Source: Elusimicrobiota bacterium (GTDB lineage: Bacteria; Elusimicrobiota; UBA8919). Taken from it: a stretch of DNA of 34,525 nt. The notes beneath the pieces are model-generated. The model was given only the letters and a program-made list of their open reading frames with translations, was not told the DNA's origin and made no database searches. The stretch is from contig DMMW01000010.1 of the NCBI GenBank assembly GCA_003452965.1, positions 1 through 34,525 of the forward strand, written 5' to 3'. Every line of letters begins with the position of its first letter. The first letter of the stretch is position 1. A program made the translations under genes and the position numbers. This document shows positions 4,640-29,455 of this stretch, piece by piece.

Positions 4640-4740
4640 ATGAAAATAGGCTTCATTGGATTAGATAAAATATATAGATGAAAAAATGGTTGCATTGGAA
4701 AATAAATGCAATCCCAAAAAGGTTACTCCATATTTTGTTT
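4640..4740 (+). pseudogene. Degraded duplicate of the first ~110 bp of the YchF-like gene at 5614. It keeps its own RBS and ATG, and an in-frame stop follows after 13 codons.
   Basis: Read directly: atgaaaataggcttcattgga...gcattggaaaataaatgcaatcccaaaaaggttactccatattttgt aligns with 5614-5725, with a 15-bp deletion and a few substitutions. Confidence 0.6.
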
Positions 4741-4843
4741 AATAAAATCTCTTTAAAAAAATTAGTGTTTAGATACAATATTTATGAGGATTCTTGTAAT
4801 AAAAACTTTGTATGCTTGAAAAGGTGATATTTTTGTTGCCCGT

Positions 4844-5617
4844 TTGGAGGATAACATAAATAAATATGAATTTGGGTTTTTAGGTGCAAAATTCCGGGTT
4901 CACAAAGACTGGAAACATTTTTTTGAAAATATATGCCTGGAATGTATAGAGAAGAATATTAGAAGAGATAAAATTACACCTTCTAAAGAAAATATTTTCA
5001 AAGTTTTTGAGAAACTCGGTCCTAAAGATATTAAAGTAGTAATAATCGGGCAGGACCCATATCCGCAACCAAATATTGCAACAGGCCGCGCATTTGAAGT
5101 TAAAGAATTGAATTCATGGCTTATTCCATTCAGGCAAGCAACATTAAGAAACATTTTGAAAATGTTGTATAACTGGCATGACAGTAAGAAGAATAAAAAA
5201 GCTTCAAGATTAGAAAAAATTGAAATTATAAAAAACGCAATAGAAAAGAAAGATTATAATATATTGCCGCCGGATAAGGTATTTGATTATTGGGAAAAAC
5301 AAAAAATATTTTTATTGAATTTTGCATTGACATACAGGATGGGTAATTGTGATAGTGGGGATTCTCATTTAATGTATTGGAAAGATTTTAATTATAAATT
5401 GGTAAGATGTTTATCAAAAATAAATAAAAATATAGTATGGTTGTTATTCGGAAAAGTTAACGAAGAAAATAACTGGATTATTAAACAAAATGCTTTTTAT
5501 ATTGCCCATCCGTCTGACAGGAGGGGAATAAACCCTAAGGATTTAGAAAAAATACGTCAATTTTTCGATATTTCGGTTAAGAAACATAAAATAGATTGGC
5601 TCGGAGGAAATTTATGA
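4844..5617 (+). CDS. ung: Divergent family-1-like uracil-DNA glycosylase (UNG-type).
   Basis: VVIIGQDPYPQ (GQDPY catalytic Asp motif), LLNFALTYR, LLFGK, and HPSDRRG matching the HPSPLS His motif. There is no in-frame ATG near the 5' end. The only start is TTG 4844, and the first ~6 codons derive from a cupin-gene fragment. Confidence 0.6.
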   Translation: MEDNINKYEFGFLGAKFRVHKDWKHFFENICLECIEKNIRRDKITPSKENIFKVFEKLGPKDIKVVIIGQDPYPQPNIATGRAFEVKELNSWLIPFRQATLRNILKMLYNWHDSKKNKKASRLEKIEIIKNAIEKKDYNILPPDKVFDYWEKQKIFLLNFALTYRMGNCDSGDSHLMYWKDFNYKLVRCLSKINKNIVWLLFGKVNEENNWIIKQNAFYIAHPSDRRGINPKDLEKIRQFFDISVKKHKIDWLGGNL

Positions 5618-6303
5618 AGATAGGTTTTATCGGGATAGAAATACCTGAGGGTAAGATAAAATACAAAGATGAAAAATTTGTCGCATTGGAAAATAAATGC
5701 GAACCTAAAAAAATAACTCCATATTTTGTAGAATTCATTATTAATGAATTCGTTCAGGTAAACGCTATTGTTATTTCAAAAGATAAAATACTTGATTTGC
5801 TTATTCCCGATATTGAAAAACTTGAAGCACGTGTGCAGAATACAAATGATAATTTTGAAAAAGAATTAATAAAAAAATGTATATCTTGTCTTGAAAATGA
5901 AATGCCTTTATGTGACATCGTTTTTAACGAACAGGAACAGAAACTTCTTCAGATGCTGTCACCGAATAGCATGAAACCGATTGTAATTATTGATGACAAA
6001 GTTGAAACAAACGAAATAATTGAAAAAGTATTAAAAAAATCACAAACTATATTTTTTTATACAGCGGGAAAAGATGAGGTTCATGCCTGGCCTGTAAAAG
6101 CAGGTTCCGATATTGTGACCTGTGCGGGCAGGATACATTCCGATTTAGCACGCGGATTTATAAAAGCGGATATTGTAAGTTTTGACAATTTTATGAAATG
6201 CCATAATTTTAATGATGCCAAGACAAAAGGATTGGTAAAGCTAGTAGATAGGGAATATATTATCCAAGAATCAGATATTATAGAGATACGCTTCAATGTA
6301 TAA
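5614..6303 (+). CDS. YchF/Obg-family-like protein that keeps the C-terminal TGS/DUF933 domain but lacks a functional GTPase G domain: its P-loop is degenerate (GIEIPEGKIK instead of GxPNVGKST) and about 130 aa of G domain are missing.
   Basis: C-terminal 90 aa align closely with E. coli YchF (FYTAGKDEVHAWPVKAGSDIVTCAGRIHSDLARGFIKADIVSFDNF...IIQESDIIEIRFNV). Start set at ATG 5614, with SD GGAGGA 5 nt upstream. Overlaps the ung stop. Confidence 0.65.
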   Translation: MKIGFIGIEIPEGKIKYKDEKFVALENKCEPKKITPYFVEFIINEFVQVNAIVISKDKILDLLIPDIEKLEARVQNTNDNFEKELIKKCISCLENEMPLCDIVFNEQEQKLLQMLSPNSMKPIVIIDDKVETNEIIEKVLKKSQTIFFYTAGKDEVHAWPVKAGSDIVTCAGRIHSDLARGFIKADIVSFDNFMKCHNFNDAKTKGLVKLVDREYIIQESDIIEIRFNV

Positions 6304-6390: not shown

Positions 6391-6630
6391 ATGAAGATTT
6401 TGTATCGTGATGTTAAAAAATATTGTGTGTTGACGAATAGAGAAGTGGAAGTCTTGCAGAAACTTATTCATAATACATTACCCAACGGGAATGAAGAAAT
6501 AATTCCTGTTCAGAAAATAAAATGTCCATATGCTATCAAGTGTTTCTATGAAGCGAGAGATTGCATTTACACTGAAAGCAATATCAATTCTAAAAATGAT
6601 CCCTTAATATTCAAAAATGAAGAGAAGTAA
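6391..6630 (+). CDS. Small hypothetical Cys-containing protein (79 aa).
   Basis: ORF only. No strong RBS. Overlaps the next gene by 14 nt, which suggests coupling. No family recognised. Confidence 0.3.
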   Translation: MKILYRDVKKYCVLTNREVEVLQKLIHNTLPNGNEEIIPVQKIKCPYAIKCFYEARDCIYTESNINSKNDPLIFKNEEK

Positions 6631-7714
6631 ATTGGAACTTAAATATAAACCGGATTTTGATTATGCAAAAGAAATGTGGAATCATTATTGGGCAAAAGAA
6701 GTATTGAAACGTCCGCTTGTGGTTGCCAATGTAGTTAAACAAGAAGGAAAAACTGTTGATAAAGATAAGTATAAGTATTATAATGCATGTACGAAGAATT
6801 ATAGAGAACAACTGACGATAATTGATGAATGGTTGGATAATACGTTATTTCTTGCTGAATCAATTCCGTGTTTTTCTCCAAGTCACGGTCCTGACCAGTT
6901 TGCTGCAATGCTCGGTGCTGATTTAAAATTTTCAGAAAGTAGCAAAACTACGAATTGGGTAGAACCTATAGTAGAAAATTGGGAAGAATTTATCCCGAAG
7001 ATTAAATTAAATGAAAATAATTCCGTCTGGCAAAGTCTTCTGGAATATTCAAAGATTCTTAAAGAACATTCAAAGGGGAAATATCTCGTTGGGATTTGCG
7101 ATTTTTATTCAAATGCCGATATGTTAAGTGCGATTCGGTCTCCGGCTAAATTGTGTATGGATTTTTATGATTATCCCGAATCAATAGCAAAGGCAATGTT
7201 ATCAGTCAGAAAATTATATAAAACGGTATATAATTCTTTATATGAAGCAGGCGGAATGAACAACGAAACCGGTACTATAGGGTGGATTCCTTTTTGGTGT
7301 AAAGATAAATATGCAACGATTCAATGTGATTTTATATGTATGGTATCACCGAAAATTGCAAATGAATATATAATTCCGGCATTAGAGGAAGAGGCGAATT
7401 TTCTTGACCATTGCATCTATCATCTTGACGGTCCCGGAGCATTACCACATCTTGATAATATTCTTGCAATAAAAAAAATTGATGCAATTCAGTGGATACC
7501 CGGTGATGGGCAGCCGCCGCAGTATGAATGGATTGATGTTCTGAAAAAATGCCAGAAAGCTGGTAAGGGACTTCAGATTTTGGATGTCACAAGCATAGAT
7601 ATTATAAAAAAATTCAGCAAAGAACTCAGTCCGGAAGGACTGGTATACTGCATAGACGTAAAGACTGAAAGAGAAGTTGATGAAATAACGACATGGCTTG
7701 AAAAAAACACTTGA
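6617..7714 (+). CDS. Putative URO-D-like (uroporphyrinogen decarboxylase / MtaA-CmuA-like methyltransferase fold) protein.
   Basis: 365 aa. His/Cys cluster DHCIYHLDGPG...IQWIPGDG, and overall length and pattern reminiscent of the URO-D-like superfamily. The assignment comes from recollection of motifs, not an alignment. Confidence 0.4.
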   Translation: MKRSKLELKYKPDFDYAKEMWNHYWAKEVLKRPLVVANVVKQEGKTVDKDKYKYYNACTKNYREQLTIIDEWLDNTLFLAESIPCFSPSHGPDQFAAMLGADLKFSESSKTTNWVEPIVENWEEFIPKIKLNENNSVWQSLLEYSKILKEHSKGKYLVGICDFYSNADMLSAIRSPAKLCMDFYDYPESIAKAMLSVRKLYKTVYNSLYEAGGMNNETGTIGWIPFWCKDKYATIQCDFICMVSPKIANEYIIPALEEEANFLDHCIYHLDGPGALPHLDNILAIKKIDAIQWIPGDGQPPQYEWIDVLKKCQKAGKGLQILDVTSIDIIKKFSKELSPEGLVYCIDVKTEREVDEITTWLEKNT

Positions 7715-7927
7715 AGCTCCATCCCGATAACAATCGGGATTATAACATTTACCATAAGATTTTAAGGAGCGGAATCCGGCCCGTCAAGGCTTCGGCCTTG
7801 GCTGGCTGCAGGATGAAGCTCCATCCCGATAACAATCGGGATTATAACATTTACCATAAGATTTTAAGGAGCGGAATCCGGCCCGTCAAGGCTTCGGCCT
7901 TGGCTGGCTGCAGGATGAAGCTCCATT
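7714..7927. repeat. 102-bp tandem direct repeat (2 full copies + 10 bp), GC-rich. Each unit carries two perfect hairpins: ATCCCGAT-aaca-ATCGGGAT, and CAAGGC-TTCG-GCCTTG with a UUCG-type tetraloop.
   Basis: Read directly: 7714-7815 = 7816-7917, identical. The six-frame 'ORF' 7711..7968 is just this repeat translated. Diverged partial copies of the unit occur at 16358-16415, and a shared ATCCGGCCCG core occurs at 95-104. Confidence 0.9.
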
Positions 7928-8000
7928 CTGTGTGGCGAGACAAGTTGCATTGGGAATGGGTAAGATGAAGTTTTACAATCATAAAAAAGGAATGAAAATT

Positions 8001-8954
8001 ATGGATTTTCAAAAACCAAAGGTTGCAATAATCGGTGCAGGAAGTGTCGGTAGTACATTTGCTTTCAGTTTGATGAATAGCGGCCTGTCAAGAGAAATTG
8101 TTCTAATTGATAGGAATGCATTACGTGCAAAAGGTGAATGCATGGATTTGAATCATGGGATAAGTTTCACTCAACCTGCAAAAATTTATTCAGCGGGATA
8201 TGAAGGTTGTGAAAATGCAGATGTTATAGTTATAACGGCAGGAGCTAAACAAATTCCGGGTCAGTCAAGAATAGATTTGGTGCAACAAAATACCGAAATA
8301 TTCAAGGATATAATTCCTAAAATAATAAAATATGCCAAAGATGCGGTAATTTTAGTTGTTTCAAATCCGGTAGATATATTAACATATGTAACTTTGAAAA
8401 TTTCCGGATTTCCTTCAAATAGAGTAATAGGCTCCGGGACTGTCTTGGATACAGCAAGATTCAAATATTTAATTAGTGAACATTGCGGGATAGATTCAAG
8501 AAATATTCATGCTTATGTTATTGGTGAACATGGAGACACAGAACTTCCCGTGTTAAGCAATGCAAACATTGGCGGAATGGTATTGTCAAAATATTGTGCA
8601 ATATGTTCCAGACATTGCGACAATAGTAGGAGCGAATTGGAAAAGATATTCAGTGAGGTTAAAAATGCTGCTTACAAAATAATTGAAGCAAAAGGTGCGA
8701 CCTATTACGCTGTTGCCTTGGCATTAGTCAAGATAACGGGCTCAATATTAAGAAATGAGAATTCTATTTTACCGGTTTCAACTCTAATTAATGATTATTA
8801 CAACATCTCTAATATATGTCTCAGTATTCCGGCTATAGTTAATAAAAACGGTGTTGAAAAATTTTTAAGAATAGAATTATCAGAACAGGAACAAACACAG
8901 CTTAAAAGTTCTGCAGATTCATTAAAAGAAATATTAGAAAAAATTAAGTTCTAA
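8001..8954 (+). CDS. ldh: L-lactate dehydrogenase.
   Basis: KVAIIGAGSVGST NAD motif. AGAKQIPGQSRIDL has the LDH-specific Gln, not the MDH Arg. IGEHGDT catalytic His. Start trimmed to ATG 8001 (7992 is also possible) because the upstream part of the long ORF is the tandem repeat. Confidence 0.85.
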   Translation: MDFQKPKVAIIGAGSVGSTFAFSLMNSGLSREIVLIDRNALRAKGECMDLNHGISFTQPAKIYSAGYEGCENADVIVITAGAKQIPGQSRIDLVQQNTEIFKDIIPKIIKYAKDAVILVVSNPVDILTYVTLKISGFPSNRVIGSGTVLDTARFKYLISEHCGIDSRNIHAYVIGEHGDTELPVLSNANIGGMVLSKYCAICSRHCDNSRSELEKIFSEVKNAAYKIIEAKGATYYAVALALVKITGSILRNENSILPVSTLINDYYNISNICLSIPAIVNKNGVEKFLRIELSEQEQTQLKSSADSLKEILEKIKF

Positions 8955-9052: not shown

Positions 9053-10516
9053 ATGTGGGATAAGAATGTTCTGCAAGATTTAATGAAGGAAAAATTGGCA
9101 AAATATAAATTTATTATAGTTTCCAATAGACAGCCTTATGTTTTTGATTATGTTGGAAGAAAAGTTAAATGTACAAAAACTATAGGTGGTTTGGTAACAG
9201 CAATGGATCCCGTAATGCAGGCCTCAGAAGGTGTATGGGTAGCTGCTTCTTCAGGTGATGCCGATAACAGTGTTATTGACAAAAATAATATTGTAAAAGT
9301 TCCTCCTGAAAAATCTGCATATTCAATGAAATTGATAAATCTAACAAAAAATGAAGAACAAGGTTATTATTACGGTTATTCAAATCAGGCATTATGGCCG
9401 TTAAGTCATATTGCGTATCGTCAGCCCAATTTTATGCATTCCGATTGGGAGACTTATAAAAATGTAAATAAAAGATTTGCAGAAAGTGTTCTGGAATTGT
9501 TTGATGATAAGCAGCCTTTTATTTGGTTACAGGATTATCATTTAACTCTTTGTGCAAAATACATAAAAGAAAAAAAACCGGAAGCGGTGAGTTCCCTTTT
9601 TTGGCATATACCATGGCCAAATCCGGAAGTTTTCAGAGTATGTCCTCAGAAAACTGAAATTTTAGAGGGATTGTTAGCGAATGATTTATTGGGTTTTCAT
9701 ATCAAATATCATTGTCATAATTTTCTTGAAACATGTGAAATTGAATTAGAATCAAAAGTTGACTGGGAAGAATCAGCAGTAACGTATAAGGGACATAAGA
9801 CTTTAATTAAAGATTTTCCTATAAGTGTGGATTTTGAATCATTGTCTGAAATGGCTGGTAGTGCAGATGTTACTAAAAAGGTCGAGGATTTGTCTTTTGA
9901 AATAGACCCTCCGTATGAAATTCTTGCACTGAGTATTGACAGAGTTGATTATACAAAAGGTATAATTGAAAAAATTCGGGCTGTAGATAAATTTTTAGAA
10001 AAATATCCTGAATACCATAAAAAATTCGTTTTTTTTCAAAAGGGTGCGCTTAGCAGATTACATATTAAGGCATATAAGGAATTAATAGATGAAATTCAAG
10101 CGTTGACTGAGGAAATAAACTGGAAATATCGTTCCGGCAATTGGTATCCGATTGTGCTTTTAAACAAGAAAATTGATTATACAACGCATATCGCTTTATA
10201 TCGGGCATGCGATTTGTGTTTGGTAGGTTCTCTTCATGATGGAATGAATTTGGTTGCAAAAGAATTTATCTCTGCTAATGTTGATATAAAAGGCATTCTA
10301 ATGTTATCAAAATTCACAGGTGCCGCTAGGGAACTGAAAGATGCTGTTCTGGTAAATCCGTACGATACCGAAGGTTTTGCTGATGCTATAAAAATGGCGA
10401 TTGAAATTCCGCCCAATGAAAAAAAGGAACAGATAAAAAGGATGCGCGAACATATTCAAGAAAACAATATTTATAAGTGGGCTGGCAAGTTTATAAGCAC
10501 ATTAATAAAAATATAA
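9053..10516 (+). CDS. otsA: Trehalose-6-phosphate synthase (GT20, OtsA family).
   Basis: GT20 motifs: SNRQPY, GGLVTA, LWPLSHIAYRQ, WLQDYHLTL, FWHIPWP, GFHIKYHCHNF. Start at ATG 9053 with SD AGGAGG 4 nt upstream. Confidence 0.9.
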   Translation: MWDKNVLQDLMKEKLAKYKFIIVSNRQPYVFDYVGRKVKCTKTIGGLVTAMDPVMQASEGVWVAASSGDADNSVIDKNNIVKVPPEKSAYSMKLINLTKNEEQGYYYGYSNQALWPLSHIAYRQPNFMHSDWETYKNVNKRFAESVLELFDDKQPFIWLQDYHLTLCAKYIKEKKPEAVSSLFWHIPWPNPEVFRVCPQKTEILEGLLANDLLGFHIKYHCHNFLETCEIELESKVDWEESAVTYKGHKTLIKDFPISVDFESLSEMAGSADVTKKVEDLSFEIDPPYEILALSIDRVDYTKGIIEKIRAVDKFLEKYPEYHKKFVFFQKGALSRLHIKAYKELIDEIQALTEEINWKYRSGNWYPIVLLNKKIDYTTHIALYRACDLCLVGSLHDGMNLVAKEFISANVDIKGILMLSKFTGAARELKDAVLVNPYDTEGFADAIKMAIEIPPNEKKEQIKRMREHIQENNIYKWAGKFISTLIKI

Positions 10517-15132: not shown

Positions 15133-16357
15133 AATAAATGATTATATTAAAATAGTAGGTGAGGATATAATAGAAGAGTTAAAAATCCTTAGTGAAAGAT
15201 TAAAAGGTAAAGTTATCCAAAATATCAATTCTACCTCTGTAGGTGGAGGTGTTGCAGAGATATTGAACAGAATAGTTCCGCTAATGAATGAACTTGGAGT
15301 GGATACCCGTTGGGATTTGATAAAAGGCGGCGAAAGATTTTTCAATATAACAAAGAGATTTCACAATACGCTGCATGGCATACCAGCCGAAATAAGCGAC
15401 GAAGAATTTGATTATTTTTTACAAGTGGAAAACGAGAACGCACAAGCGATAAATTTTTATGGCGATGTGATATTGATTCATGACCCGCAACCAATCGGGC
15501 TTATCAACAGAAAAAAAGATTTCGGTAATAATAAGAAGTGGATATGGAGATGCCATATTGACATTTCCCATCCCGAAATTAAGGTATGGGATTTTTTAAA
15601 GCAGTTTATTAATTCATACGATGCATCAATATTTTCTGCTCCGGTGTTTTCAAAGGAACTTCCCATAAAACAATTCTTAATCTCACCATCTATAGATCCG
15701 CTTTCCGATAAAAACAAAGAACTTGATGCATCTACTATTGATTCTGTTTTATATAAATATAAAATTACCAAAGATAAACCGATTATAACACAGATTTCAC
15801 GCTATGATATATTGAAAGACCCGCTTGGAGTAATAGATGCGTTCAAATTAGTACGGAAACATATTGATTGTCAATTAATACTTGCTGGAAATACAGCTAC
15901 TGATGATCCGGAACATGACAAGGTTTTAAATATGGTAAAAGAGAAAGCTGGAAATGATTCGGATATTCATATACTTGTAATAGAACCTGCAAATAATGAT
16001 ATTGAAATAAACGCTTTACAGCGTGCATCGGATATAGTTTTACAAAAATCACTTAAGGAAGGCTTCGGACTTACAGTTTCTGAAGCACTTTGGAAGAAAA
16101 AACCTGTAATTGCAGGGGCTGTTGGTGGAATTCCGCTACAAATTACGCATAAACATTCTGGAATTCTTACCCATACTGTGGAAGGAACGGCTTATTGGAT
16201 AAAACAACTCATTAATTCGCCTGAATATGCCAAAAAACTCGGTCTAAACGGGCATGAACACATAAAGAACAATTTTCTTCTAACTCGCCATATTCTCGAA
16301 TACTTTCTTTTATTCACTTCACTTTATCACAGCGGTGACATCATCCACCTTAATTAG
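15125..16357 (+). CDS. treT: Trehalose glycosyltransferring synthase (TreT, GT4; NDP-glucose + glucose -> trehalose).
   Basis: Collinear identity blocks with Pyrococcus/Thermococcus TreT: INSTSVGGGVAEIL, FFNITKRFHNTLHG, WRCHIDIS, PSIDPLSDKN, KPIITQISRYD, QRASDIVLQKSLKEGFGLTVSEALWKKKPVIAGAVGGIPLQI. Confidence 0.85.
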   Translation: MAKINDYIKIVGEDIIEELKILSERLKGKVIQNINSTSVGGGVAEILNRIVPLMNELGVDTRWDLIKGGERFFNITKRFHNTLHGIPAEISDEEFDYFLQVENENAQAINFYGDVILIHDPQPIGLINRKKDFGNNKKWIWRCHIDISHPEIKVWDFLKQFINSYDASIFSAPVFSKELPIKQFLISPSIDPLSDKNKELDASTIDSVLYKYKITKDKPIITQISRYDILKDPLGVIDAFKLVRKHIDCQLILAGNTATDDPEHDKVLNMVKEKAGNDSDIHILVIEPANNDIEINALQRASDIVLQKSLKEGFGLTVSEALWKKKPVIAGAVGGIPLQITHKHSGILTHTVEGTAYWIKQLINSPEYAKKLGLNGHEHIKNNFLLTRHILEYFLLFTSLYHSGDIIHLN

Positions 16358-16431
16358 GGTCTGCTGAAAAACTCCATGCCTACACTAAAGCTTCGGCAGG
16401 CAGGCAGCATCCCCCTGATGAATATTCCTAT

Positions 16432-27960: not shown

Positions 27961-29436
27961 ATGAAAAAGTATAAAATATTCGTGAGTGGTGTGCAGAAAG
28001 AACTCAAAGCAGAACGCCGGGCAGTGAAAGATTCGATTCTCGGTGATGTCTTGCTCTCCGAGTATTTTGACGTTTTCTTGTTTGAAGATTCACCGGCTAA
28101 AAGCCATTCAGCAGAAAAGGCATATCTTGAAGAAGTCCGTAAAGGCAATATCTATATCAGCATTCTTGGCGATAAATACGGCAGCACGGGCAAGAATAAA
28201 ATTTCTCCTACCGAAGCAGAATTTCGGGAAGCAAAAACCAAGCATAAAGACATTTTAATTTATATAAAAGGTGAAAACTCCGTTGATAAAAACCGTGAAG
28301 CAGGCGTACAGAAACTTATTAAGGAGATTAAAGATTCCAAGGTGGGTTATTGTTATCGCAGATTTAATTCCATCAGCGAATTAACCAACCTTGTTTATGA
28401 AAGTTTGATTGTCTTTTTAAAAGAGAAAGGAGAAGTCGGCAGAGCCGTATTTGACCAGCGGATATGCGACAGTGCGACTTTCTCCGATATTGACGATGAA
28501 AAAGTTAAGTGGTTTTTAAAAACAGCACGAGCCAAACGGAATTTTCCACTTGCTCTTGATTCTTCAACACAAGATGTTTTTACTCATCTAAAACTTTTGA
28601 AAGACGGCAAATTGACCAACGCCGCAGTTTTATTATTCGGCAAAGAACCGAGAAAGTTTTTTGACCAGGCAAAAATCAAATGTATTCATCTGCCAAGTAC
28701 CGAAGTAGAGAAACCGTTCACATCATATCAAATTTACGAAGGGAATTTATTTGAGCAGGTGGACAAGGCAGTTAGTTTTGTATTTGATATACTCAAATTC
28801 CCTGTTATTCAGCAGGAACATACTGTCCAGGTATCTCGGCCCCGTGAAATTCCAGTATTCGTGGTTCAGGAAGCCATCGTCAACGCAGTTGCTCACCGCG
28901 ACTATAACACGACGTCCTCTGTTCAGGTAATGGTATTTCTTGACCGAGTGGAAATATGGAATTCTGGGACTTTACCAGCCCACTTAAAAATAGAAGACCT
29001 CAAAAAACCACACGCATCTCACCCGACAAATACTTTATTAGCCACAGTAATGTTTTTTGCCGATTACATTCAACAAGCAGGTTCGGGAACATTGGAGATG
29101 CTCAAACAGTGTAAGGCAAAGGGACTTCCCGAGCCGGACTTCGTATCAGTGCGGAATCTTGAATTCAAAACAATATTAGCCAGAGATATTTTTACGGAAG
29201 AGGTCTTAAATAAACTGGGATTGAATGAACGCCAGTTAAAAGCAGTAAAATATGTAAAAGAAAAAGGCAGAATAACGAATAAAGAATATCAGTTAAATTT
29301 TGGTGTTAAGAAAAGACAAGCAACAGATGATTTAAAAGATTTAGAAAATAAAGAGGTCTTAATTAAGATTGGATCTACTGGAAGGGGAACATATTACAAG
29401 GTTAATGGGGCGATAATGGGGCGAAAGGGGCAATAA
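27961..29436 (+). CDS. DUF4062 - AlbA_2/Schlafen-like - HATPase_c_4-like (RecG-C-terminal-like) three-domain protein. Candidate defence or regulatory protein.
   Basis: N-terminus KIFVSGVQKELKAERRAV...YLEEVRKGNIYISILGDKYGS fits the DUF4062 pattern (xFxSS..L..ER......P..FE......YG). Middle region KVKWFLKTARAKRNFPLALD...AAVLLFGKEP is Schlafen/AlbA_2-like. C-terminal region AIVNAVAHRDY...IWNSGTLP...QAGSGTLEM matches the HATPase_c_4 family. Domain assignments come from memory of the family consensus. Confidence 0.65.
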   Translation: MKKYKIFVSGVQKELKAERRAVKDSILGDVLLSEYFDVFLFEDSPAKSHSAEKAYLEEVRKGNIYISILGDKYGSTGKNKISPTEAEFREAKTKHKDILIYIKGENSVDKNREAGVQKLIKEIKDSKVGYCYRRFNSISELTNLVYESLIVFLKEKGEVGRAVFDQRICDSATFSDIDDEKVKWFLKTARAKRNFPLALDSSTQDVFTHLKLLKDGKLTNAAVLLFGKEPRKFFDQAKIKCIHLPSTEVEKPFTSYQIYEGNLFEQVDKAVSFVFDILKFPVIQQEHTVQVSRPREIPVFVVQEAIVNAVAHRDYNTTSSVQVMVFLDRVEIWNSGTLPAHLKIEDLKKPHASHPTNTLLATVMFFADYIQQAGSGTLEMLKQCKAKGLPEPDFVSVRNLEFKTILARDIFTEEVLNKLGLNERQLKAVKYVKEKGRITNKEYQLNFGVKKRQATDDLKDLENKEVLIKIGSTGRGTYYKVNGAIMGRKGQ

Positions 29437-29455
29437 AGGGGCGATAATGGGGCAG
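29404..29455 (+). repeat. Five evenly spaced GGGG tracts (loops 7, 5, 7, 7 nt) inside a degenerate ~11-bp tandem repeat (TAATGGGGCGA)x5. Canonical G-quadruplex-forming motif on the coding strand, spanning the last 11 codons and stop of the DUF4062 gene.
   Basis: Read directly: GGGG at 29407, 29418, 29427, 29438 and 29449. Confidence 0.7.

Follow-up and report, generated by a model that had tools for sequence, protein, structure and literature searches.

In a 34,525-nt stretch of an Elusimicrobiota genome (assembly GCA_003452965.1, contig DMMW01000010.1, positions 1 to 34,525 of the forward strand), referred to below as the window, a 102-nt sequence is repeated in tandem between a conserved hypothetical gene and the L-lactate dehydrogenase gene ldh. 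This unit is one of a few related structured intergenic repeats, 104-131 nt in length, which form a lineage-specific family in groundwater Elusimicrobia. In kind it belongs with the known structured intergenic repeats, and it is not assigned to any named family. By analogy with the repetitive extragenic palindromic (REP) sequences, we somewhat favour the reading that this structured intergenic repeat, present in few copies, acts on mRNA in the way of REPs. If this reading is true, a repeat family is added to the Elusimicrobia, a phylum known almost solely from metagenome bins.

Tandem Repeats Finder delimited a perfect array at 7712-7926 (period 102, 2.1 copies, 100% matches, 0 indels). An earlier inspection of the same DNA without database searches (the sequence-only reading) had recognised the array correctly and placed its limits, 7714-7927, 1-2 nt off. 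The layout is A-B-A-B-A, with the 11-nt TGAAGCTCCAT as A (starting at 7712, 7814 and 7916) and a 91-nt segment as B. Copy 1 occupies 7712-7813 and the identical copy 2 occupies 7814-7915, both on the + strand; they were matched by the covariance model of the family with 102.9 bits and, over 7813-7916, with 117 bits, respectively. A partial third copy, the first 11 nt of the element, closes the array at 7916-7926 (+ strand), and the unit-unit junction reads GCAGGATGAAGCTCCATCCCGAT. The TGA stop codon of the upstream gene (7712-7714) forms the first three bases of the array, in agreement with the earlier statement that two identical 102-bp units start exactly at this stop. The GC content is 47-50% within the element versus ~30-37% (about 33%) in the surroundings of the locus.

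Two hairpins, an 8-bp one with an AACA loop and a 6-bp one with a TTCG loop, had been described for each unit, and both could be identified in each. Hairpin 1, ATCCCGAT-AACA-ATCGGGAT (8 bp; + strand, 7721-7740 in copy 1 and 7823-7842 in copy 2), starts 6 nt past the stop codon, as it does in three of the five full copies, and shows no variation among the full members of the family. The second is the core cUUCGg hairpin CAAGGC-TTCG-GCCTTG (+ strand, 7783-7802 and, in copy 2, 7885-7904), the stem of which contains 6 perfect bp, or 8 if G:C and U.G are counted. This core is the tip of a long irregular 3' hairpin (+ strand, 7766-7822; copy 2: 7868-7924) with the composition GGAGC / AUCC / GGCC / GUCAAGGC-UUCG-GCCUUGGC / GGCU / GGAU / GCUCC, in which the closing GCUCC is supplied by the next A repeat. 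The bare unit folded better than each of 200 shuffled sequences (z = -3.55), and the unit with the trailing 11 nt (z = -5.26) and the whole spacer (z = -6.7) also surpassed all shuffles. The conserved 3' end of the family, CTGGCTGCAGGAT, is found at 7802-7814 and again at 7904-7916 (+ strand). Since its GCAGGAT and the 5' ATGAAG of the next unit overlap by AT, the 104-nt element yields a period of 102.

The window copy is designated W, and L-numbers denote the loci fetched for comparison. The family comprises five full copies (W, L052a, L052b, L075 and L095a) together with a partial one and is spread over five loci of two species. The proteins flanking W bear the NCBI names of Elusimicrobia bacterium RIFOXYC2_FULL_34_12, the organism of the window, and the other species is RIFOXYD2_FULL_34_15. 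The latter is a separate species, since its HolB, SurE and Tmk have no cluster mates of at least 90% identity from RIFOXYC2_FULL_34_12. A pattern scan with CCATCCCGATNNNNATCGGGATTA over one genome per species yielded 57 loci, mostly Bacteroidota sites sharing the hairpin alone; L052 at 5276 (L052a) and L075 at 6817, both in RIFOXYD2_FULL_34_15, could be aligned over the entire unit. The more diverged L052b (522-634) was detected by nhmmer with the 5' module, and L095a (10001-10104) was reached via a called open reading frame (ORF), P0245, in a protein search with the open frame of the element. Since the L095 contigs carry RIFOXYC2_FULL_34_12 proteins, L095 represents a further locus of the organism that the window comes from. 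The covariance model also revealed L095b, a partial copy consisting of the 3' half only, which lies inverted 785 nt from L095a. All full copies scored 103-129 bits with this model. The sequence-only reading had proposed a family of structured intergenic elements and a search for its copies beyond the window; the family and the further copies exist, the true relatives being at L095, L052 (two copies) and L075, and not at the sites within the window that it had named.

Those sites represent chance-level matches. The claimed kinship of 16358-16415 came down to an 8-mer in nhmmer and blastn-short searches, and the family covariance model, run with the filters off at E<=10, found nothing there and no further copy in the window. 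The best local alignment of the unit to 16340-16430 scored 19, a value reached by 98 of 1506 random control windows. The decamer reported at 95-104, ATCCGGCCCG, is really at 98-107, where it is among about a dozen 10-mer matches that arise by chance. Elsewhere in the window the unit gave 8-11-mers only (blastn-short, nhmmer).

Searches for the element in viral contigs, plasmids and phages were negative. A metagenome scan with the hairpin-2 core GTCAAGGCTTCGGCCTTGGC gave 13 matches, all in unrelated GC-rich coding DNA; the organism's Rifle aquifer contigs were not among them. Rfam covariance models gave no gathering-score match in the window, L052, L075 or L095, and only noise around the repeat at E<=10; the tRNA search of the locus had no match either. 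A literature search returned no papers on the hairpin sequence or on REP elements in Elusimicrobia, a phylum for which such elements are not known to have been reported.

The members of the family share a common layout. They start with (A)TGAAGCTCC, the invariant 8-bp hairpin, an AT-rich spacer and GGAGCG, followed by a variable GC-rich part (zero to two extra hairpins per copy), GCCCG, a terminal hairpin with compensatory stem replacement and CTGGMTGCAGGAT. The 5' module, consisting of (A)TGAAGYTCC, the invariant hairpin and TATAAYATYTACCWTMAGGATTC, is 73-95% identical among the copies. The stem of the terminal hairpin belongs to the type YCAAGG/CCUUGR in W, L052a and L052b and to the type UCCC(GA)/(UU)GGGA in L075 and L095a. 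In the pair counts 92% of the cells were paired, and for the terminal hairpin, with AU-to-CG double changes at two of its pairs, a value of 88% was obtained. Covariation, a check proposed in the sequence-only reading, scored higher than in 492 of 500 shuffles, a result which, from five sequences, is no more than suggestive. The G.U pairs of W and L075 lie on the + strand; L052a and L052b show a C.A mismatch at this place. Between L052a and L095a, from different species, the identity of the 5' module is 95%, compared with only 86% for the pair of copies in the genome of the window; thus either these paralogues would be old and constrained, or the element would move between co-resident species.

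Every copy lies between genes, and each of the five full ones points in the direction of the downstream gene. In three of the five full copies (W, L052b and L095a) the TGA of the element doubles as the stop codon of the upstream gene, and with spacers of 100-300 nt three exact coincidences among five copies would be far beyond chance. The genes downstream are functionally unrelated: ldh, a radical SAM enzyme, hsdM, and a dubious small ORF or hypC. An ATG is found 4-11 nt past the element in L052a, L052b and L075, while L095a has no gene within 420 nt.

In the window the upstream gene (6617-7714, + strand) encodes a conserved hypothetical protein of 365 amino acids. Since its C-terminus (...WLEKNT*) coincides with the end of the homologues, the stop codon is at its native position. 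No Pfam family was found for the protein, and the label "URO-D-like" given to it in the sequence-only reading is without Pfam support. Homologues number 523, with up to 68% identity, and are spread across Spirochaetota, Kiritimatiellae, Lentisphaerae and other groups; all of them terminate in WLEKNT-like C-termini and a few are named methyltransferase by JGI. The closest ones (P0001 and P0002; 66-68% identity) are non-syntenic, thus they provide no empty site for the W locus.

According to the reading favoured here, the element would be transcribed in the sense orientation as an intercistronic or 3' untranslated region (3'-UTR) segment, and its stable hairpins would act as a barrier to 3'-5' decay or as a partial terminator, uncoupling the neighbouring genes. 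Hairpin 1, being 6 nt from the stop, would lie inside the footprint of the terminating ribosome and could interfere with termination. At the mRNA level REPs serve as barriers to decay or as terminators; in E. coli, stalling and trans-translation result when a REP is no more than 15 nt away from a stop codon (PMC5082802). The REPs and bacterial interspersed mosaic elements (BIMEs) of Enterobacteria and Pseudomonas resemble the present element in being extragenic and hairpin-forming, often directly after stops in operons, single or clustered; palindromes near stops are seen here too, with two stable hairpins per unit, all intergenic and 3/5 at a stop. However, REPs are units of 20-40 nt with hundreds of copies, a GTAG-type head and a cognate REP-associated tyrosine transposase (RAYT) gene, whereas the element is a composite of ~104 nt with two different hairpins in direct order, a handful of copies and no GTAG head. 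The copy number stays below the tens to hundreds per genome that are characteristic of REPs. No RAYT/Y1 transposase was found among the called genes of the fetched loci, no whole-genome search having been made. The REP/BIME-like character suggested earlier is a reasonable analogy for the behaviour (extragenic, hairpins, right after stops), while the few copies and the missing GTAG-type head do not bear out membership.

Several observations weigh against this reading. The copy number is low: the exact 20-base pattern of hairpin 1 occurs twice, with one near-match, in the whole RIFOXYD2_FULL_34_15 assembly, and ~55 kb of the window organism's DNA, unselected for the element, contained this locus only. 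L075 sits after a divergent gene and cannot form part of a 3' UTR at that locus, and L052a lies 324 nt past the upstream stop. A scan of the + strand of the repeat for intrinsic terminators found no GC-rich hairpin with a U tract; the hairpins are followed by UUAUAAC and GCAGGAU. The covariation in five sequences may be traceable to a single event, and the role proposed at the mRNA level is drawn from the REP analogy. Finally, the 11-nt repeat that trails W lacks a counterpart in any other copy.

Other known systems share some of these features. BOX elements of Streptococcus pneumoniae are modular intergenic sequences of ~100-200 nt with conserved end modules and a variable middle; they have predicted stable structures, are without a transposase and influence the expression of neighbouring genes. 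The element has the same kind of modular layout, with conserved ends and a middle of variable length, but BOX elements occur in more than 100 copies per genome, are composed of the defined boxA, boxB and boxC and have no sequence similarity to it; moreover, the duplication here concerns the entire unit and not one of its internal modules. Rickettsia palindromic elements and the GC-rich clusters of AT-rich organelle genomes are GC-rich hairpin inserts of ~100 nt. They are alike in the GC-rich hairpin insert, the AT-rich genome and the one open frame; however, they are often located within coding sequences and translated, while the Elusimicrobia copies are outside genes and begin with a stop. 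An attC site was rejected by inspection, the RYYYAAC and GTTRRRY core sites being missing at the ends of the element.

The family is associated with local structural change, as a tandem in W, an island at L052 and an inverted pair at L095. In the relatives L091-L093, the stop of a GT2 glycosyltransferase gene, 15 nt and the ATG of a radical-SAM gene follow each other, while in RIFOXYD2_FULL_34_15 (L052 522-5387) the same two genes are 4.87 kb apart. Between them, element b abuts the GT2 stop, 4.6 kb follow, and element a ends 5 nt before the radical SAM start. The insert, which contains the methylase gene hsdM (without hsdS or hsdR), a protein without a family, a PRiA4-like ORF and RadC, forms an island flanked on either side by a copy of the element in direct orientation. 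In other Elusimicrobia, no element accompanies the orthologues of the L052 radical SAM gene. The tandem duplication in itself is ordinary. The non-trivial features are the exact abutment to the stop in 3/5 copies and the pair of copies bounding the hsdM island, which could reflect a mechanism of targeting or a function in the punctuation of operons.

At L095 (10001-10975) the 785 nt flanked by the full copy and the inverted partial copy (3' half, ~90% identical) contain a small gene whose product has a signal sequence of the lipoprotein type. Immediately upstream is a HigB/HigA-like pair, and an IS6-type (DDE_Tnp_IS240) transposase gene, seen in L098, is ~500 nt beyond. The GC-richer and strongly self-complementary segment at L095 10285-10410 (AACTATTAGGTAA...TTACCTAATAGTT around GCTGTCAC...CCGTC-TTCG-GACGG...GTGGCAG, then TTTTTAT) resembles a structured RNA with a terminator and had no Rfam match.

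These rearrangements bear on a possible, if rather doubtful, alternative, namely that the element is a non-autonomous mobile element of the IS200/IS605-derived palindrome-associated (PATE) or the REP-RAYT type, mobilised in single-stranded form by a Y1 (HUH) transposase. The transposase would recognise the subterminal hairpins, and a target of WTGAA type would place the insertions after TGA stops. The copies have no terminal inverted repeats, the 5' end ATGAAGCTCC and the 3' end CTGGCTGCAGGAT not being inverted copies, and no target-site duplication flanks them, in contrast to classical miniature inverted-repeat transposable elements. The 11-nt repeat was rejected as a target-site duplication; these 11 nt stand at the 5' end of all other copies too and are missing from their 3' flanks. 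Like PATEs, the element lacks these two features and has one hairpin near either end, a strand-specific orientation (strict in the five full copies) and a constant sequence at the left flank or start, (A/T)TGAA. Stems of TCCC(GA)/(TC)GGGA are present in both hairpins of L075 and L095a, and similar solo hairpins flank hypC in L075. The higher identity of the 5' module across species than within the window's genome would fit recent movement or exchange, and the copies bound an island and occupy rearranged regions. On the other hand, neither TnpA nor another transposase of this type was found among the called genes of the loci examined, the one near L095b being of the IS6-type DDE class, and the two hairpins are unrelated in sequence in three of the five copies (W, L052a and L052b). 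The copy number is very low for a mobile element. Its boundaries and target are undefined: TGAAG may be part of the element itself, the ends are not fixed by an empty site, and the sole filled-versus-empty comparison involves the whole island.

The solo hairpins of L075, at 7243-7275 and 7549-7564, are TCCCGAC-N19-GTCGGGA and TCCCGA-TGAG-TCGGGA. After the second comes CAGGCTGGGTAAAA, a sequence similar to the 3' end of the element, and a GC-richer leader of ~200 nt (7110-7318) is located upstream of hypC.

It is unlikely that the element is a cis-acting 5'-UTR RNA which controls downstream translation by sequestering the Shine-Dalgarno (SD)-like AGGA. Here AUCC(UGC) would pair with the 3'-terminal (GCA)GGAU, and the opening of this pairing could be linked to a signal or, via hairpin 1, to upstream translation. 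The orientation of all five full copies towards the downstream gene, the nearby ATG in three of them, the perfect 7-nt AUCCUGC/GCAGGAU complement in L095a and L075 (AUCC/GGAU in W) and the G.U pairs on the + strand are consistent with such a function. However, the downstream genes do not belong to one gene family or pathway, as would be expected of a riboswitch or leader, L095a has no gene in its vicinity, GGAT is lost in L052b, the radical SAM orthologues do without the element and no Rfam family matches. In W, moreover, ldh (8001-8954, + strand) starts 74 nt past the end of the repeat and has its own SD, AAGGAA; Pfam agrees with the earlier assignment of this gene. A sigma-70-like promoter match, by consensus only, lies between the element and ldh (7950-7979, + strand), which suggests that the start signals of ldh, from its own promoter-like site downstream of the element, would be independent of the latter. 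A sigma-54 promoter in GGCTGGCTGC was rejected by inspection, the GG/GC spacing being wrong and not conserved in L052a.

Hairpin 1 is also found in Bacteroidota. The pattern ATCCCGAT-N4-ATCGGGAT with CC...TA flanks (20 specified bases) has ~55 Bacteroidota sites versus about one expected by chance, and the loop is mostly AGCT there, giving a perfect 20-bp palindrome. L044 contains three copies of the hairpin at 9-317 (period 143) and L051 four at 1303-1622 (period 99), the latter within repeated partial tRNA-Leu copies. The contexts of these sites are unrelated to one another. Hairpin sites (L032-L088) are also located at both ends of a Daejeonella contig, beside tRNA or 5S genes, and those of Flavobacterium lie 5-21 nt past ORF stops; L034 71-94 and L038 6522-6545 are further examples. 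No Rfam family covers the Bacteroidota sites. One could imagine that a conserved machinery recognising this hairpin mobilises or uses a class of stop-abutting elements across the Fibrobacteres-Chlorobi-Bacteroidetes (FCB) group and the Elusimicrobia, which we consider quite improbable. The agent could then be a Y1/HUH transposase or an RNA-binding factor, and the ~104-nt composite of the Elusimicrobia, as one form of this class, would in addition act as a seed for duplications and for the integration of islands. Only three points are worth following, namely the abutment to stop codons, the island with a copy at each end and the hairpin in common with Bacteroidota.

An independently transcribed small RNA (sRNA) gene family, with tandem paralogues at this locus, is very unlikely. 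The strong predicted structure, the tandem layout and the conserved single-stranded AT-rich stretch between the hairpins would suit it, and the minus strand contains a -10-like TATAAT: an extended -10-like box, TGTTATAAT, was read from the sequence at 7739-7747 and again at 7841-7849 and is identical in L052a and L095a. The promoter scan reported minus-strand TTGACG-17-TAAAAT sites and not this box, which is on the strand with the poorer fold statistics (W, L052a). Neither a U-tract terminator nor a convincing + strand promoter was found, the 5' end overlaps the upstream stop in 3/5 copies, and Rfam had no match. The tandem sRNA paralogues PrrF1/PrrF2 and LhrC1-4 are diverged units, each with a promoter and a U-tract terminator. 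The element is comparable to them in its intergenic head-to-tail units of ~100 nt, but differs in that the units are identical, polymorphic in number and without terminators.

A small protein (MKLHPDNNRDYNIY...), translationally coupled to the upstream gene via an ATGA or TTGA overlap, has hardly any likelihood: a start codon is at one position in all copies, the frame is kept to the 3' end in 4/5 of them and the gene caller predicted ORF P0245, but the C-terminal halves show no relationship to one another, in L052a the frame is shifted and stops early, the 3' nucleotides are conserved whatever the frame, the invariant stretch is a perfect inverted repeat without synonymous variation and only one match was obtained among 5.8 billion proteins. 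A selenocysteine insertion sequence (SECIS), readthrough or translational bypass was rejected as well; an in-frame TAA follows after 16 sense codons and the native C-terminus is kept.

The number of units varies in the population. Assemblies were gathered by exact look-up of both flanking proteins, which gave many independent assemblies of the same organism. The inter-flank distance was 113 nt (A-B-A, 1.1 copies) in 14 assemblies, from which copy 2 is absent, versus 215 nt in the window. L008 has 2.1 copies as in the window, the contig of L017 stops within a second copy, and the contigs L004, L005, L009 and L018 begin or end inside the element. The flanking DNA is 99.9-100% identical to that of the window, and the flanks of L007 are 100% identical to it over 7.6 kb and 1.7 kb, yet L007 has one unit. 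The second unit is a very recent gain within a nearly clonal population, since contigs with 100% identical flanks hold a single unit, in line with the recent duplication which the sequence-only reading had deduced from the identity of the units. The 1.1-copy form is the usual allele here, and the window holds a recent population variant with one unit more.

The perfect identity of the units and the breaking of contigs at this site might point to an assembly artefact. This explanation of the second copy can practically be dismissed, as the two-unit form was found in L008 and L017 besides the window, the junction GCAGGA-TGAAGCTCCAT-CCCGAT should be unbuildable from the k-mers of the 1.1-copy allele if k is far above 11, and breaks are the expected outcome of mixed 1.1-copy and 2.1-copy alleles. 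The 1.1-copy allele also closes with an 11-nt copy of its own start (TGAAGCTCCAT); these trailing 11 nt are absent from the other copies of the family. The duplication could have arisen if the two 11-nt direct repeats, which have a spacing of 102 nt, underwent slipped-strand mispairing or recombined unequally, and the hairpins lying between them would assist this process. A repeat-number polymorphism is thus directly observable in a natural, nearly clonal aquifer population; the array is usable as a strain marker and is a known cause of contig breaks.

Further repeats and variable sites were noted in the window. A heptanucleotide microsatellite (CAGGATA/CAGAATA) x 21 is located at 2094-2243 between two minus-strand genes; it has the same length in 10 other assemblies and one unit more in L017 (167 vs 160 nt), which combines the longer microsatellite with the two-copy allele of the 102-nt element. 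CTTGGTGTTGCATCCGGC occurs twice in the first 210 nt of the window, at 190-207 as the 3' end of a minus-strand short-chain dehydrogenase gene (186-1358) and at 88-105 as a partial duplicate. Upstream of position 82 the assemblies diverge (L001-type versus L012/window-type), thus this is a strain-variable junction. An 86-nt direct repeat (4658-4743 and 5649-5734; 83% identical, 991 nt apart) is placed ahead of and within the genes 4844-5617 and 5596-6303. At 29403-29453 an 11-nt tandem repeat, TAATGGGGCGA x 4.8, lies at the end of the ORF 27961-29436.

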